This document shows, piece after piece, positions 50,184-59,625 of a stretch of 59,625 bases of DNA. The notes beneath the pieces are model-generated. The model searched no databases. It saw only the letters and a program-made list of their open reading frames with translations, and had not been told where the DNA came from. Numbering within the stretch: the stretch's first letter is position 1; each line of letters opens with the position of its first letter. This DNA is from Promethearchaeota archaeon (lineage in GTDB: Archaea > Asgardarchaeota > Lokiarchaeia > Sigyniarchaeales > SOKP01): contig JBHLLT010000006.1 of the NCBI GenBank assembly GCA_048938855.1, positions 106,086-165,710 on the forward strand, written 5' to 3'. A program made the position numbers and the translations under genes.

Positions 50184-51017
50184 TTATTTAATTTCACTGT
50201 GATATTGTAATAAATTTAAGTCTTTTCTTATTTTTTTACCGATTTCTAAAGATTTTTTTGCGAGCATTTTAATTTCATCAATTGAAAATGTAGCAGCTCC
50301 ACTTTTTTGGATTGAAGTTATTTTATCTTCTGTAACAGAAATAGATATTTTACCATCACTCACTAATTCTTCTGGTAAACTTGGGTCCAAAAATATTATA
50401 TCTTCAATTTTTCCGTAAGTAACAGCAAAAGGTAATTCATTTACGATATCCTTTCCCGTCAAATACTTTCCAGTCCATTCAGCTTCACCCTTTTCTTCAT
50501 TCCAAGTACCTTCAGGAATATGAGCGGATAATAATGAGGTTAATGCACTTACCGCACCTGCATCAATTAAATTTCCTTGGTAATTCATCACATACATATC
50601 AACGAAAAGAATATAGACTAAAACTCCTTCTTTAATGCAAAGTTTTTTGGTTTGTACACAATCTGCATGTCTAATTCCCCGATCTACTACTCGTGCTAGT
50701 TCAATTGATTGTTCATCTGGAGGACCTCTCTCAAATAAAGGAGATGCTATAGGAAGTAGTTCTGCCATAATAGTACACACACCTTCATTAGGAAGATCAG
50801 GAAAAGGTTCACCTACTTCATATTTTAATCCAGTAATGATTCGAGTTTTTCCTAAAGAAACATCTGATGAACCTTCAGCAGACGCGATAACATCACTTTT
50901 TACTTGGAAATCACGATATTCAAACAAACCTCTATTATCAATTCTTTCTTCTTTCTTAAGATTAGAAATAATATAATCTCTTTCAATTTTTGAGATAATA
51001 CGCTTTACATCCATCAT
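50184..51017 (-). CDS. rrp42: Exosome subunit Rrp42
   Basis: RIDNR, AEGS, PFPDLPNEG, ELARVVDRGIR and IQKSG. Confidence 0.95.
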   Translation of the reverse strand: MMDVKRIISKIERDYIISNLKKEERIDNRGLFEYRDFQVKSDVIASAEGSSDVSLGKTRIITGLKYEVGEPFPDLPNEGVCTIMAELLPIASPLFERGPPDEQSIELARVVDRGIRHADCVQTKKLCIKEGVLVYILFVDMYVMNYQGNLIDAGAVSALTSLLSAHIPEGTWNEEKGEAEWTGKYLTGKDIVNELPFAVTYGKIEDIIFLDPSLPEELVSDGKISISVTEDKITSIQKSGAATFSIDEIKMLAKKSLEIGKKIRKDLNLLQYHSEIK

Positions 51018-51799
51018 TTTTGTTTATCACCTTTATTAACTTCTTTTTCTTTCGTAGTCTCTTCTTGTAATTTAATATATTTACTCTTTAATGCATTTAA
51101 TTGGATTTGATGGATTTTCTCTAATGCGATTTTAGCAAGATCCAAAAATTCATTCATCTCCTCCAAGTTCATATCTCCGTCAAACTGCAAGAGGGAAATC
51201 TCATCATTATACCAAGTAATTGCGATTGGAAAGTCAGCTTCTCCCGCTTTATCTTCAATACCAGAAAGATCAACCACTTTTTTTCCATTAATTTTACCCA
51301 CGGCAATAGCTGATACTAAGCTTTTCATGGGAACTCCTGCATCAGCCAATGCTAATGCTGCTACAGTAGTACTTGCACACCTAGTGCCACCGTCGGCATC
51401 CAATACTTCAATAAAAACTTCGAAACTTGTACCAGGATAAAGCTCGAGAAATAATAAAGGTTCTATGCAATCTGCTACGATCATAGATATCTCTTTTTCT
51501 CGACGTCCAGGCGCAGGTCTCTTTCTATCAAATACAGAAAATGTAGCCATCCTATAAAAAACTCGCAATATTCCCTTATCTGGTTTTGATAAGTGATGTG
51601 GGTGTACTTCTCTAGGACCATAAACTGCCGCATATATTTTATTGTTTCCCCATTCTAAATATGCTGAACCATCTGCATTTTCAATAACACCAACTTCCAT
51701 TTTTATTGGTCTTAATTCATTAACATCTCGACCATCTAGTCTTTTTCCATCTTTACGAAATAAATTCTCTGGATATTCATCTTTTATTATTAATGGCAT
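51014..51799 (-). CDS. rrp41: Exosome exonuclease Rrp41
   Basis: RLDGR..ELRP, ADGSAYLE, YGPRE and DADGGTR. Confidence 0.96.
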   Translation of the reverse strand: MPLIIKDEYPENLFRKDGKRLDGRDVNELRPIKMEVGVIENADGSAYLEWGNNKIYAAVYGPREVHPHHLSKPDKGILRVFYRMATFSVFDRKRPAPGRREKEISMIVADCIEPLLFLELYPGTSFEVFIEVLDADGGTRCASTTVAALALADAGVPMKSLVSAIAVGKINGKKVVDLSGIEDKAGEADFPIAITWYNDEISLLQFDGDMNLEEMNEFLDLAKIALEKIHQIQLNALKSKYIKLQEETTKEKEVNKGDKQK

Positions 51800-52596
51800 T
51801 ATTCAATACCTCTTTTCTTTTTTTCATTAATTATATATTCTTGCATTCTATCAGTTAACCCAACAGTATGAGCTTCCGAAGCAATTTTATGAATTGATTC
51901 AATTAATAGCCTTTCATGTGCGATATCTACTCCTTTCAACCAAATCCGACCATTTTGTGTTACAAAAATATTACAATTTGTTAAATTTTTTAACATTGTA
52001 ATCATTGATCCATTTCTACCAATTACTCTTGGAATTTTAGGAGGATCAATAGTAATTACAATTCCTCCAGTTTTTTTCCCTAAATATTTTCCGACGGTAG
52101 TCAATTCTGGTGTATTTAAACGATCAGCAGAAAGAACTTTTACTACTAAAATGTCTCCTATTTCGAATTTCTCAGTACTAGCTTCCTCACGTACCGAACC
52201 ACCTCCTCCTCTAAAACCTCTTGTTCTTCCCTTCTTGATTGTATTTTTTGGTTTCAATTGACCAAAGTCTTTAGCATTAATATCACATTTGTATTTAACA
52301 GGATTTTTATCAATTACTAAAGCTATAACCTTATCTCCAGGCCGAGGTGTATAAAAACCCCTAAGAGGGATTACATTTACATAATTCTTTTTTATTTGTT
52401 TTAAACCAATATTTAAAGAAATAATTTTATTTCTCTCTTTATTTAATATTGTTCCTCTTCCTGGTAAAAAATTAGTAACATCTTCCGTTAAAACTTCTCC
52501 AGGCACAACTACTTCTCTTGTATCTTCCTCTTCTTCAAAATCTTCGTACTCATCATCTAAAGGTTCTTCTTCATTATTTTCCATTATAGTACTCAC
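51799..52596 (-). CDS. rrp4: Exosome RNA-binding cap Rrp4
   Basis: VVVPGE, YTPRPGD (S1 domain) and KIPRVIGRNGSM (KH domain). Confidence 0.94.
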   Translation of the reverse strand: MSTIMENNEEEPLDDEYEDFEEEEDTREVVVPGEVLTEDVTNFLPGRGTILNKERNKIISLNIGLKQIKKNYVNVIPLRGFYTPRPGDKVIALVIDKNPVKYKCDINAKDFGQLKPKNTIKKGRTRGFRGGGGSVREEASTEKFEIGDILVVKVLSADRLNTPELTTVGKYLGKKTGGIVITIDPPKIPRVIGRNGSMITMLKNLTNCNIFVTQNGRIWLKGVDIAHERLLIESIHKIASEAHTVGLTDRMQEYIINEKKKRGIE

Positions 52597-52673
52597 GTTT
52601 TTCTATAATTTTGTTATTCTCCTAACCTATGCTAAAAAATAATATAAATTAAAGTCAATCAAAAACCTTTAGG

Positions 52674-53465
52674 CTAGGCTTTCAAAATTTTAGTCTGAAC
52701 TCTTCCATGAGTTAATTTATTCAATTTATCAATTAACTCCATTTGTAATCCAGCAGGTAAACCTACTACAGCAACCCAGGATCCATCAGATTGCCATTCT
52801 TCTTTCTTAATTTGCACATATTGGGCAACAATATTATAACCCTTAGCTGTAAACGCTGTTGGAATTTTAATTGCCATTTCAACTTGTTCAATTCTTATAG
52901 GAATAATGGCTCGAATACTCTTAACAACATCATCAACCTGTTCTTCCGCACTCCTCATTAAATCAATTTTAACTTTTGCTTCTTCAATAGCTTTTTCAAT
53001 TCGTTGGTATGGATGAGGTTTTTTATTTTGTGGATTTATTGCATTTTTACTTATAATTGTTATAATTTGTTTCAATTTCTTCTGGCGCTCTTCTTCTCTT
53101 TGGACTTGTGTCCAATGAATTTCTCCATCTAATAGGATATGCGCCCCAATTCTCATCCCATCTGTTGTATTAAAAACTACTTCCATGTCTCCATCTGTTG
53201 CTTTTTTTCCTCTTCTTAAATCTTCGAAAACACTAAAACTCTCAAAAACAAGTTCTAAATCGATACTTTGATGATTAAGTATCTCTTCAACAGTAAGACG
53301 AGATTTTTCTTTACCTTCTTTTAATCTATTATTGATTTCTTCACGAATTAGTTTTTTGGCTTCCCAAGCTTTCTCAGGATCCATTAACATTTCAAAAACT
53401 CTTCCAGAATTCTCGATTCGCCCTATGATATAACCGCCTAAATCAATTCTTGCTCGATCAATCAT
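52674..53465 (-). CDS. Ribosome maturation factor SBDS/Sdo1
   Basis: GRVFE...DP, AINPQNKKPHP..RIE and superoperon context. Confidence 0.93.
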   Translation of the reverse strand: MIDRARIDLGGYIIGRIENSGRVFEMLMDPEKAWEAKKLIREEINNRLKEGKEKSRLTVEEILNHQSIDLELVFESFSVFEDLRRGKKATDGDMEVVFNTTDGMRIGAHILLDGEIHWTQVQREEERQKKLKQIITIISKNAINPQNKKPHPYQRIEKAIEEAKVKIDLMRSAEEQVDDVVKSIRAIIPIRIEQVEMAIKIPTAFTAKGYNIVAQYVQIKKEEWQSDGSWVAVVGLPAGLQMELIDKLNKLTHGRVQTKILKA

Positions 53466-53566
53466 GTTACAGTTTCACAATTTAACTGATTGAATAATCT
53501 CAATTTGTTCTTACAATATTTTCTGTCTTTCTGTTAAGAGATAAATATAAATGGGTGTAACCTTGA

Positions 53567-54286
53567 TTATATTTTAGTTAATAATCCTTCTTTTTCTTCC
53601 AAACTAAGTAGCTTAAAGGTTTTATCTTCCTTTAATATAAAAGCTACATCACATGTATTATTATTTAAATTATCGCCCATCAATTCTTTCAATGCTTTTA
53701 AAGGCAATAATTTCAAATCCTCATCACTCATATCTTCTTTATAATGCTCTTCAAGGTAAGCTCTTGCTTCCGCTGCTCCGGAGCCAATAGCAAAAGCTTT
53801 ATACCCCCACATTGCTCCACTTGGGTCCGTTAAATATAAGGAAGGCTGATCATTAGAATCGATCCCAGCAATTAGAAAGGAAACACCAAAAGGGCGTACT
53901 CCTGCGTTTTGGGTAAATACTTGTTTGTATTCACATATATTTAGAGTGCTATCTTTAACAGAAATCCTTTCATCATAATTTAATAAATTAACCTGAGCTT
54001 GAACTCGAGCTCGGTCAATAAGCACTCTAGCATCAGCAGTAAGTCCCGCAATTGCTACTCCTATATGGTCATCAATTTTAAATATTTTTTCTGAACCTTT
54101 AGTTTGCTCTTGAAGTTCAGTACTTTTCTTTTCAACAGCAAAAACCACGGAGGTCTTATTCCTGCATACAATTGCCGTGGTCCCCCTTCGTACAGCTTCA
54201 ATAGCATATTCAACTTGAAAAAGCCGACCTTCGGGTGAAAATTGGGTTATCGCCATATCATAACCTCTTCCTGCTTGCTGGAACAC
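53567..54286 (-). CDS. psmA: Proteasome alpha subunit
   Basis: YDMAITQFSPEGRLFQVEYA, RPFGVS and TDPSG. Confidence 0.97.
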   Translation of the reverse strand: MFQQAGRGYDMAITQFSPEGRLFQVEYAIEAVRRGTTAIVCRNKTSVVFAVEKKSTELQEQTKGSEKIFKIDDHIGVAIAGLTADARVLIDRARVQAQVNLLNYDERISVKDSTLNICEYKQVFTQNAGVRPFGVSFLIAGIDSNDQPSLYLTDPSGAMWGYKAFAIGSGAAEARAYLEEHYKEDMSDEDLKLLPLKALKELMGDNLNNNTCDVAFILKEDKTFKLLSLEEKEGLLTKI

Positions 54287-55130: not shown

Positions 55131-55307
55131 AATTCTCCATCTTTCACATAATTCTATTTTGCGTTTATTGAAAGAATGATAAAAATTTTTGAATTTAAAT
55201 CTTTTTAGAACAAACTATTCTATCATTCAAATTAAGGGAAAGTATTTTACACAAAAGAGATTAGTTTATTTAATAGTATATCGAAATTACCCTTTGTGTT
55301 TTATTTT

Positions 55308-56102
55308 ATGGTCCAAAAATTAGTTTTATTTGATAAAATCTATAATATTTCAGATCAAGGAAAGAAGGAAGACATTTATCTTCGATATCTCAAGTATTTG
55401 AAGGAGCGGGTTAAAGGATTTAGGGATACTTCTATTCAGATAAAAAAGCTAAGGAAATTTGATAAAAGATTCGAGATTTCCATCAGTGGTTCTGAAGAAT
55501 CATTCATCCTTAATATTTTAAAAAAAGAAATTGGAAGTATTGAAAATTTTAAAGACATTAGTGTTGGAAAGATATATCGAGGTACTCTTGTTGATGTAGG
55601 AAAAGTTGGATTCGGACTTTTTGCAGATTGTGCGATCTCTAATCCCCATGCTGATGTTTTAATTAATTTACACTCACTAAGAGAACAATTATGTAAAGGT
55701 TATCAGAGATCATTGAATGAAATTATTGATGCATATGATTTTATTGATCATTTTCCTGTATATGTTAAAATCACCGAAATAGATTCTACTAAAAATAAAA
55801 TTCTTGGTGAGTTAGCCTCACAGACTTTAGAGTTCTTTAACAAAATCTTAAAAGAAAATCTTGAGGGAGTCTTTTTAAGTGGAGAAACTAAAGGTCAATT
55901 TAAGAAGATCTTGAATAAAAAAGGCCATTACCGAGATATTATTTCAGTGAAAAGATTTGGGTTTTTAGAAAATTTAGTTCTTTTAAAAGAAGGGTCAAAT
56001 GCTCCAGGAATTATTGCTCATATTGGTAAAGAACTCAGAAATTGTAAATTAAGCGCTATAAGACCTCAGAAAATAAAACAACTTTTTGAATTAAATGAGT
56101 AA
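55308..56102 (+). CDS. Archaeal OB-fold protein (DUF2110-like)
   Basis: GKIYRGTLVDVGKVGFGLFAD, GHYRDI...RFG..E and APGII..IG. Confidence 0.75.
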   Translation: MVQKLVLFDKIYNISDQGKKEDIYLRYLKYLKERVKGFRDTSIQIKKLRKFDKRFEISISGSEESFILNILKKEIGSIENFKDISVGKIYRGTLVDVGKVGFGLFADCAISNPHADVLINLHSLREQLCKGYQRSLNEIIDAYDFIDHFPVYVKITEIDSTKNKILGELASQTLEFFNKILKENLEGVFLSGETKGQFKKILNKKGHYRDIISVKRFGFLENLVLLKEGSNAPGIIAHIGKELRNCKLSAIRPQKIKQLFELNE

Positions 56103-56103
56103 A

Positions 56104-56269
56104 TGGTGGGCCAGGAGAGGTTTTCAAGAAAAAAGGATATCTTCTTTCCAATTGAACTCCCGACCTTCGCGGTGTATTCGCGATATAATATATTTAATGT
56201 TATATTAGCGCGACGTCTATTATTCAATTTTTTAAAAAAATTGAACCATAACCACTAGACCACTGGCCC
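56104..56269 (-). tRNA. tRNA-Val(UAC) with three introns (56217-56246, 56177-56206, 56121-56150); CCA encoded
   Basis: Removing three 30-nt inserts gives a 76-nt cloverleaf: GGGCCAG TG GTCTAGTGGTTATGAC G TCGCG CT TAC AC CGCGA AGGTC GGGAG TTCAATC CTCTC CTGGCCC A CCA. Confidence 0.92.
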
Positions 56270-56590
56270 AGTCTAACAAATTTTAATTAAGTTTAATACC
56301 AGATACAATTAAAATTTTTGTGTAAATATGATTTCATTAATATATAATCAAGGACGAAAAATGAGAGGACCTTTTTAGTTTTGATCTTCCTGATTAGATA
56401 GATCCTAAGAAATTATTTTATTTTTTTTAAATCTGTTCTATATAATGGTTAAAACGTGATAGAATAAAGAATTTTCGGAGAGAAATGAGACAGATGGAGT
56501 ATGTTTTAGAGTATTATTTTTATACTACTTTTTCTTATTTAGTAGTATTGTTTAAAATCCAGCATGGTATAGGATAAGAGGTATTTAAAA

Positions 56591-57148: not shown

Positions 57149-57223
57149 ATTGATAATATTCTTCTCAACAGTAATTTTTGGTTAAAAAACTAAATATTTA
57201 AAATCTTCATTAGATAATTTGAG

Positions 57224-57306
57224 CGCAATCGGTGGGATTCGAACCCACGAGTCCACTGGACACCGGTTTAGCAGACCGGCGCTCTACCAGGCTAAGCGAC
57301 GATTGC
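57224..57306 (-). tRNA. tRNA-Ser(GCU)
   Basis: GCAATCG/CGATTGC acceptor, CCGGT-CTGCTAA-ACCGG anticodon arm, long variable arm, TTCGAAT and G73. Confidence 0.95.
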
Positions 57307-57455
57307 TTATTAAATTAAGATTCGTTCAGTTACAATTTCAATATAACAATTCACAATTTTAATATTTTATTATATAATTTAGACGTCCACCTAGAAAGAA
57401 AAAAAGAAAAAAATTTATAATTAATATTTCAAAATCTTCTGTCTTAGCAAATTGA

Positions 57456-58661
57456 TTATAATTTCTTCCTTGAGCGCCGTAGTTGTCTTATCCTATTTTC
57501 TCCATAATACCATAAAGTACCAATTGGAATACATATCATCCAATTTATCAGTAGATATAAAAAGACTATTAAGGGATCATATCCAAAATCAATTCCAAAA
57601 ATACTCGCACCGTAATGACCTCCGTATAGACTAATAACTATTCCGAAATATAATATCTGAGTTAGCAGAATATGATAAGTCGACCTACTAATTAGCCTAA
57701 TTCCCTTTACTAAAATATTATTATCTTTAACCTTTTTTGGAAATATTTTTAATGCAAGCAAAACAAGGAATGCCGAATATGGAAAAATGAGAAAATGATA
57801 ATCACCAAGTTCAAACCCAAAAGAGAAATTAAAGAACTGATAGGCAATGATATATGCCAAACTTAAAGGAAACAGTATCCACATGAAATAATTTTTTTTA
57901 GAAAAGATGTCATGATCCCGAGAAAACCACAACCCTAATCCAACAACAGATAACATAAAAGGTAAGCTTGTAACAGTGAATCGGTAATAAAATTGCCACT
58001 CAGCAGGGGAGGAAACATATAAAGGCACAACAAATCTAAAAAGGGAAATAATTCCTAATTCGATAATATAACATAAGCACAGAGAAATAATACTCCATTT
58101 TAATTTCCCAGAAAATCCTTTGTATAATAAAGGCATTATTAAAATCGACCAAAAAATAACAGGTATAAACCAATTACCAGGCCCATAGAAGGGTAAAATA
58201 CCAATTAATAAATGTGCTACATCCCATCTCCAGTAACCATGTACTATATCATAATGTTGTCCATACCACATAGCCTCAAGATCAAAATTATATCTGATCA
58301 ATCCTGTAATAGTAGAGACGATATAAAGGATAAAGAAAGGAAAAATGTATCTCCAAAACTTCTTTTTAAAGTAATTCCATGAATATAATTTTCTTAATGA
58401 AGTTTCACCCGTTTGTTTGAATGAAAGTCCCATATTAAAGCCCATAATTACTAAGAACACAGGAATTGAGATTCTTTCCCATAAAGCAACTCCCATGAAA
58501 TTTTTTAAGTCCCAAGGATATGTATGATCAAAAATAACTAGAAAAATCATAACAGCTTTTAAAATATCTATTTGAAAAAAACGGTGATTTTTTTTATCAA
58601 ACTCCTCAAATTTTTCAATGGAAAAATCATCTTCTTTCATATTTATGTCTCCAAATTTCAT
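57456..58661 (-). CDS. Acyltransferase family 3 membrane protein
   Basis: IDILKAVMIFLVIFDH, IPVFLVIMGF, NWFI and STYHILLTQ. Confidence 0.85.
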   Translation of the reverse strand: MKFGDINMKEDDFSIEKFEEFDKKNHRFFQIDILKAVMIFLVIFDHTYPWDLKNFMGVALWERISIPVFLVIMGFNMGLSFKQTGETSLRKLYSWNYFKKKFWRYIFPFFILYIVSTITGLIRYNFDLEAMWYGQHYDIVHGYWRWDVAHLLIGILPFYGPGNWFIPVIFWSILIMPLLYKGFSGKLKWSIISLCLCYIIELGIISLFRFVVPLYVSSPAEWQFYYRFTVTSLPFMLSVVGLGLWFSRDHDIFSKKNYFMWILFPLSLAYIIAYQFFNFSFGFELGDYHFLIFPYSAFLVLLALKIFPKKVKDNNILVKGIRLISRSTYHILLTQILYFGIVISLYGGHYGASIFGIDFGYDPLIVFLYLLINWMICIPIGTLWYYGENRIRQLRRSRKKL

Positions 58662-59421: not shown

Positions 59422-59526
59422 GCAGACGTAGCCTAGCTGGTAAGACGCCGGCCTTGAGTTGTTTAATATTTAGACAAGAAAGCCGGTGCGCGTAAGCGCT
59501 CGGGGGTTCGAATCCCTCCGTCTGCG
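59422..59526 (+). tRNA. tRNA-Ser(UGA) with a canonical 37/38 intron (59459-59480)
   Basis: GCAGACG/CGTCTGC acceptor; CCGGC CT TGA G[intron]A GCCGG; exon CTTG pairs with intron CAAG; long variable arm; G73. Confidence 0.92.
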
Positions 59527-59551: not shown

Positions 59552-59625
59552 GGGCTATTGGCGCAGGCAGGTAGCGCAGCAGGCTCTTAACCTGACGGTC
59601 GGGGGTTCGAATCCCTCATAGCCCG
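59552..59625 (+). tRNA. tRNA-Lys(CUU)
   Basis: GGGCTAT/ATAGCCC acceptor, GCAGG-CTCTTAA-CCTGA anticodon arm and TTCGAAT; ends at the window edge. Confidence 0.95.

Follow-up and report, generated by a model that had tools for sequence, protein, structure and literature searches.

The window analysed here, a 59,625-nucleotide stretch of DNA, carries on its minus strand (56269-56104) a tRNA-Val(UAC) gene with three bulge-helix-bulge (BHB) introns of 30 nt each. The spliced tRNA is 76 nt long and is composed of exons of 23, 10, 26 and 17 nt, the intron sites being 23/24, 33/34 and 59/60. Exon 1 (56247..56269; all parts of the gene lie on the minus strand) covers tRNA positions 1-23, with the 5' strand of the acceptor stem and the D-arm. 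Intron 1 (56217..56246), in the D-arm, is 87% A+T and has the central helix GUUA/UAAU and a 10-bp inner hairpin. Exon 2 (56207..56216) is a 10-nt micro-exon holding positions 24-33; as read from the sequence, its G26-U27 are common to the outer helices of introns 1 and 2. Intron 2 (56177..56206) interrupts the anticodon loop directly 5' of the wobble U and has the central helix CGCG/CGCG. Exon 3 (56151..56176, positions 34-59) holds the anticodon UAC, and intron 3 (56121..56150), in the T-loop, combines the central helix UUCA/UGAA with a 9-bp inner hairpin and uses the T-stem as its outer helix. Exon 4 (56104..56120, positions 60-76) includes a genomically encoded CCA and ends 1 nt from the stop codon of a convergent DUF2110-domain gene (55296..56102, plus strand). 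Through this conserved neighbour, which lies outside the tRNA, the host was placed in Promethearchaeota/Lokiarchaeia, in agreement with an earlier sequence-only reading that had called the lineage Asgard-like.

When exons 56269-56247, 56216-56207, 56176-56151 and 56120-56104 were joined, ARAGORN called Val(tac) of 76 nt with the encoded CCA. The call was clean only with all three inserts removed, partial removal giving either no call or the wrong anticodon, and the unspliced gene was called by neither ARAGORN nor Rfam. The coordinates, the three 30-nt introns and the 76-nt product proposed in the sequence-only reading are therefore exact, and its suspicion that standard annotation may miss such a gene is borne out.

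The spliced product regains a canonical cloverleaf and is identical to that of the intron-free orthologs L011, L028 and L034. A search of the 97%-complete assembly turned up no other Val(UAC) gene, nor the intron-less copy that the same reading had considered. A contig from another study (X5, 55758-56298), differing by three substitutions, runs across the gene, which overlapping contigs from a further study (X7) also cover. Since independent contigs carry the gene, it is no assembly artefact, a possibility that the reading had raised. We read the locus as a single-copy tRNA gene that is functional and probably essential.

Elsewhere in the window, a cluster encoding proteasome alpha, SBDS and the exosome subunits Rrp4, Rrp41 and Rrp42 (50184-54286) has the usual archaeal arrangement. 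Three further tRNA genes are present: tRNA-Ser(GCU) (57223-57306) is intron-free, tRNA-Ser(UGA) (59422-59526) has a canonical 22-nt intron, and tRNA-Lys(CUU) (59552-59625) lies at the contig end and overlaps the start of contig C79. A search for a mobile-element attachment remnant at the Val gene found no duplicated tRNA fragment nearby and no viral match. The remark that the introns interrupt a tRNA 3' half favoured by mobile elements gained no support; of the three introns, two are located in the 5' half or in the anticodon loop.

Structure of the Val introns

Each insert is built in the same way, as 1 nt, a 23-nt hairpin, 4 nt and 2 nt. The central helices, predicted earlier as 4-bp exon/intron pairings within a BHB layout, are paired 4/4 in all three introns and flanked on opposite strands by two 3-nt bulges with predicted cuts after the second base; the outer helices of introns 1, 2 and 3 have 3, 2 and 4 bp and the inner helices 10, 6 and 9 bp. 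Shuffled inserts gave an equally good BHB in only 2, 0 and 0 of 20,000 trials, and an alignment to the intron-free form that made no use of the BHB also yielded lengths of 30, 30 and 30 nt. Identity among the three introns is 27-40%, so they are unrelated, in line with the earlier reading, which saw no obvious sequence shared by them. The BHB is kept in their homologues, and the two strands of the exon/intron helix match across orthologs: exon TTCA occurs with intron TG.. in 13/13 and exon TTCG with intron CG.. in 11/11, counts drawn from related, non-independent lineages.

In the ViennaRNA ensemble, the central helix has a probability of about 0.03 at the D-arm, 0.98 at the anticodon and 0.74 at the T-loop. 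The D-arm helix is seldom formed in the predicted ensemble, so refolding would be needed at that site. Together with the sharing of G26-U27 between introns 1 and 2, the modelled D-arm helix makes either refolding or a set order of splicing likely.

Splicing machinery

The host genome encodes two EndA paralogues. The best match of the first, a 197-aa alpha subunit on contig C93, is the alpha subunit of Aeropyrum pernix, and its Y138/H146/K177 and loop lysine K55 align to A. pernix Y125/H133/K164 and K44. The second, of 202 aa, on contig C34, lacks the catalytic His. RtcB is also encoded, on the same contig as one of the EndA paralogues. By these alignments, the host EndA is predicted to be of the two-subunit type with a broad-specificity loop, in line with the relaxed EndA that had been postulated. 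An (alpha-beta)2 EndA with an L1 loop has been reported for Asgard archaea (Kaneta 2018, PMC5829648); the host enzyme resembles it in having two paralogues, with the catalytic triad and the loop lysine in the alpha subunit, and at the sequence level we found no difference between them. By analogy with that enzyme (PMC5829648), the two subunits would form a heterotetramer that cleaves relaxed motifs. The Val(UAC) precursor would then be cut by EndA and ligated by RtcB.

The host tRNA-Lys(UUU) gene (G000:C81:43489-43592, locus L098) has a 30-nt intron near 44/45 with a poor central helix (2/4), as in relative G023, and the gene is the only Lys(UUU) copy detected in the host genome (G000). Judged from its pairing, this intron is apparently a very relaxed substrate.

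tRNA introns in the host genome

We took a census of the host tRNA genes by an intron-aware profile search with our own script, in which at least two misparses were found; the census excludes the short contig C35, an apparent second strain. Among 43 tRNA types, 33 have introns, 53 introns in total. Seven genes contain three introns, namely Val(UAC), Leu(GAG), Leu(UAA), Asn, Ser(GGA), Trp and Ile(UAU), and in this respect the Val(UAC) gene is unexceptional. Non-canonical introns are exactly 30 nt long in 17/44 cases and 28-32 nt in 34/44. In contrast, none of the nine canonical 37/38 introns is 30 nt long (14, 17, 22, 22, 25, 29, 32, 47 and 49 nt). The Leu(GAG) introns measure 30, 30 and 28 nt, the 28-nt one, in the variable arm, being judged from orthologs. 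Leaving the Val gene aside, 14/41 non-canonical introns are 30 nt long, so the chance of three introns at 30 nt is about 4% per triple-intron gene, which makes the Val gene mildly lucky and nothing extraordinary.

The assembly yielded no Cys(GCA), Gln(CUG), Pro(CGG) or Arg(CCG) tRNA, and an anticodon-loop 10-mer on contig C4 was ruled out as a tRNA. A further copy of a Leu/Glu/Asn cluster, on contig C35, has other introns and represents either a second strain or a paralogue. The short contigs C11, C18, C19, C29, C30 and C37, with 53-67% G+C, look like contamination. A tRNA-Ile gene (G000:C49:43788-43962, L101; orthologs L178-L186 and L218) has the anticodon UAU. Neither an Ile(CAU) gene in G000 nor the agmatidine enzyme TiaS (PF08489) in any of 31 genomes of the order could be found, which suggests that AUA is decoded unlike in most archaea.

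Intron length among relatives

Orthologous loci were fetched via neighbouring proteins, the DUF2110 gene being one anchor, so that sampling was unbiased by intron content, and were scanned in the same way as the host genome; two of the neighbour-protein searches returned few loci. In the family to which the window belongs, the length is 30 nt in about 108 of 255 distinct non-canonical introns, compared to 1/43 canonical introns. The length constraint that had been put forward as a possibility thus exists. T-loop introns, pooled over all families and some ten isotypes, are exactly 30 nt in 61/93 cases and 29-31 nt in 79/93, and they hold this length despite a low core identity (median 0.44), a constancy that also fits selection. 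After clustering, 30 of 105 non-canonical sequence families have a median of 30 nt, the next class having 13; at this level, the contrast for 29-31 nt is 49/105 non-canonical against 5/21 canonical families (p=0.058).

The Val introns follow the same pattern. Homologues of intron 1 at 23/24 are 27-30 nt long, all 17 distinct homologues of intron 2 at 33/34 are 30-31 nt, and 20/22 distinct Val introns at 59/60, the site of intron 3, are 30 nt. Introns at the same three sites occur in six other sampled genomes, four of them with 30/30/30, and Val introns at other sites (22/23, 44/45, 53/54 and 58/59) measure 30-33 nt as well. The equal lengths in the host gene, pointed out in the earlier reading, thus follow from the family-wide mode at 30 nt and need no special property of the Val gene.

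Other lengths are also found. Non-canonical introns of 14-49 nt occur, and some families are stable at another length: Ser-TGA 37/38 at 19 nt (15/21), Ser-GCT 22/23 at 19-20 nt (15/18) and Ile 38/39 at 45-48 nt. The few introns sampled from other families of the order show no mode at 30 nt (0/8 and 1/9, both small samples). In tables published in 2024 for Atabeyarchaeia and Freyarchaeia, which use annotator boundaries and include canonical introns, 0/60, 3/58 and 7/62 introns (10/180) are 30 nt long, with medians of 28. Our literature search found no paper describing a 30-nt mode. We conclude that the 30-nt length is a habit of non-canonical tRNA introns across one Lokiarchaeia family. Two tRNA genes of relatives contain four introns, Asn in G014 (L157) and Ile-UAU in G037 (L184).

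Turnover and copying of introns

On an 80-row DUF2110 gene tree, intron presence changed state at least 14 times at the D-arm, 15 times at the anticodon and 17 times at the T-loop site. Seven of the eight possible combinations of the three Val introns were seen, and near-identical sisters (L010 and L019) differ. Identical intron-free Val interiors, which differ from that of the host's spliced product, recur in distant branches, in L001 (the sister of the host genome), L026, L037 and L040. On sequence grounds, this recurrence suggests lateral swapping of tRNA alleles by recombination. Intron-free interiors also recur in this way in loci L002, L013 and L021.

Within genomes, four pairs of introns from different isotypes have at least 70% core identity, against 0.02 expected by shuffling, and all of them lie at 58/59 or 59/60. 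T-loop introns are common to Ile and Thr tRNAs in G031 and G035 and to Ser, Lys and Thr tRNAs in G037; the three Val introns themselves fall outside such pairs. Between positions, 26 pairs reached at least 65% identity against 11 in the null and three reached at least 70% against 0, among 19,123 non-independent pairs. This cross-position homology is too weak to establish a single mobile founder. Target-site or exon duplication was rejected as a general origin, since intron cores are no more similar to their own host tRNA (4.64) than to other tRNAs (4.60) and the terminal sequences of exons are not repeated at the ends of introns. When intron donors were sought, the genome offered nothing beyond low-complexity stretches, the best an A+T-rich match of 21/22 nt, and viral contigs yielded no match. 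With the queries used, we found no reverse transcriptase in the 97%-complete genome and no Y1 (HUH) transposase (PF01797) in G000. No sequence is conserved at the ends or hairpin feet of the introns, and the cores are unrelated.

Inserts in protein-coding genes

The AMP phosphorylase gene of the host (G000:C74:52176-52205, minus strand) contains a 30-nt BHB insert with a central helix paired 4/4 that places an in-frame stop inside the HSTGG motif, and removal of the insert restores the reading frame. The 30-nt build is therefore not specific to tRNAs, and conversion from one tRNA to another cannot be the full account. In an ORF-rescue scan, a CaiB/BaiF-like gene (G000:C55 near 34900, minus strand) was also seen to contain a BHB insert, here of 31 nt. 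A strict genome-wide BHB scan outside tRNAs showed no excess at 30 nt (40 against 40 in the control), and the ORF-rescue scan gave no length peak above shifted nulls, so these scans are too blunt for counting mRNA introns.

Other irregularities were noted in coding regions. The gene for ribosomal protein uL11 (G000:C49 near 57326-57476, minus strand) has two inserts around the ASGGPPI segment, which the BHB check did not confirm. Stops lie inside matches to the DUF2110 gene or to a 341-aa gene beside tRNA-Lys(UUU) in L281 (G014), L275 (G027), L253 (G013) and L257 (G027); these are possibly further mRNA mini-introns or end effects. In another family, a 455-aa gene beside tRNA-Sec matched in two pieces within one open frame (L201/L205 in G016, L203/L204 in G022 and L202 in G028), reflecting either an in-frame insertion or a divergent linker.

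Discussion

The Val(UAC) gene is a known kind of object, and a triple-intron gene alone is not new. Multi-intron Asgard tRNAs have been published (Valentin-Alvarado 2024, PMC11291895; Goswami 2026, bioRxiv 10.64898/2026.10.13.758758), with up to five introns per gene in the latter. The arrangement is thus already catalogued, a circumstance that the sequence-only reading had named as lowering the novelty, and its view that triple introns belong mainly to Thermoproteales gives way to these reports and to the seven such genes found here. The published tRNAs of Atabeyarchaeia and Freyarchaeia/Jordiarchaeia (PMC11291895; bioRxiv 10.64898/2026.10.13.758758) resemble ours in being Asgard genes with several non-canonical BHB introns each, at D-arm and T-arm sites, in being overlooked by standard annotation and in repeated gains. 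These hosts belong to another class than the Lokiarchaeia host, and no word starting with Loki or Prometheo occurs in the main text of the preprint (bioRxiv 10.64898/2026.10.13.758758). Their burden is 2.2 introns per gene compared to 53 in 43 genes here, and their lengths are broad (median 22-23 in the preprint), whereas the Loki family has a sharp 30-nt mode. Cross-isotype copying is rare there (1.5%), while the Loki family offers clear T-loop cases.

As summarized in PMC4090602, Thermoproteales (Sugahara 2008, Fujishima 2010) likewise have up to three introns per gene at BHB-constrained sites, an (alpha-beta)2 EndA and related introns across tRNA types, and archaeal intron medians are mostly 12-25 nt, unlike the 30-nt mode described here. 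The Thermoproteales-type trait of closely related introns in different tRNAs of one genome was also found in relatives G031, G035 and G037. A 31-nt T-loop intron in a Lokiarchaeota tRNA-Sec (Mariotti 2016, PMC4989117) agrees with our introns in lineage, arm and size class, but it is a single case, reported with neither a census nor a statement on length uniformity. In our host genome tRNA-Sec has no intron; in relative G013, its 59/60 site holds one of 30 nt.

We favour, with moderate confidence, an explanation in which splicing is of the known kind and introns of this Lokiarchaeia family are born near 30 nt and keep their length by descent. New non-canonical introns would appear as hairpin units of about 30 nt (1+23+4+2) and would then hold their length with slow drift. 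Once established, introns pass from one tRNA type to another at a given site and come and go between lineages, a pattern that recombination or gene conversion would explain. The main rival holds that 30 nt is kept by selection, EndA or RtcB favouring an inner hairpin of 9-10 bp as a molecular ruler, above all in the T-loop, so that inserts of any origin converge. The concentration of T-loop introns at 30 nt across some ten isotypes would fit such a ruler, as would the off-centre lengths of canonical introns and the persistence of 30-31 nt at Val 33/34 across deep branches, although A/T runs invite slippage there. However, non-canonical introns of 22, 24, 26, 37, 43 and 46 nt in the host genome must all be cut by this one enzyme, and the families at 19-20 and 45-48 nt are equally length-stable. 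From these two facts it follows that length is inherited. That so many unrelated families gather at 30 nt is then best read as a birth size; selection by a ruler, above all at the T-loop, we consider less likely but a serious rival.

A fixed unit might also arise at the DNA level. Archaeal histones have a 30-bp step, and excision of IS200/IS605 elements is seamless. The introns could be hairpins moved by an HUH/REP-like transposase in trans, or captured 30-bp fragments protected by a histone dimer, of which the BHB-formers survive. The fixed size, strong hairpins (median z = -3.2), precise loss and presence in mRNA genes agree with such an origin, but it is improbable: the genome yielded no Y1 transposase, neither it nor the viral contigs contained a donor, the introns have no conserved end sequence, the cores are no nearer to their own host tRNA than to others, and hairpins are not expected from random DNA fragments. 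That the Val locus is an artefact or an unspliced pseudogene is highly improbable. The poorly populated D-arm helix in the predicted ensemble would suit a pseudogene, but independent contigs carry the locus, its exons are intact and equal to those of intron-free orthologs, it is the sole Val(UAC) gene found, and the BHB is kept in homologues.

If introns are indeed born near 30 nt, our preferred guess, held tentatively, is that excised introns are re-inserted by EndA/RtcB into RNAs that pair with the 4-nt helix strand of the intron and are then copied into DNA. In the furthest-reaching reading, which we regard as doubtful, this Lokiarchaeia family would host actively spreading, non-coding mobile mini-introns with a fixed 30-nt birth size, a ready-made BHB, targets in tRNA and protein genes, precise loss and an undescribed insertion mechanism, and the Val gene would have taken three independent hits.

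How BHB introns enter genes is called an open question in the preprint (bioRxiv 10.64898/2026.10.13.758758), which would gain concrete handles from a narrow birth size, from rapid turnover between close relatives and from copying at the same site. Many tRNAs of this Lokiarchaeia family are missed or mislabelled by standard tools. The occurrence of the 30-nt build in a protein-coding gene ties the tRNA introns to mRNA splicing that may take place in Asgard archaea, and the family-wide, fixed-size intron build is a variant that deserves follow-up.
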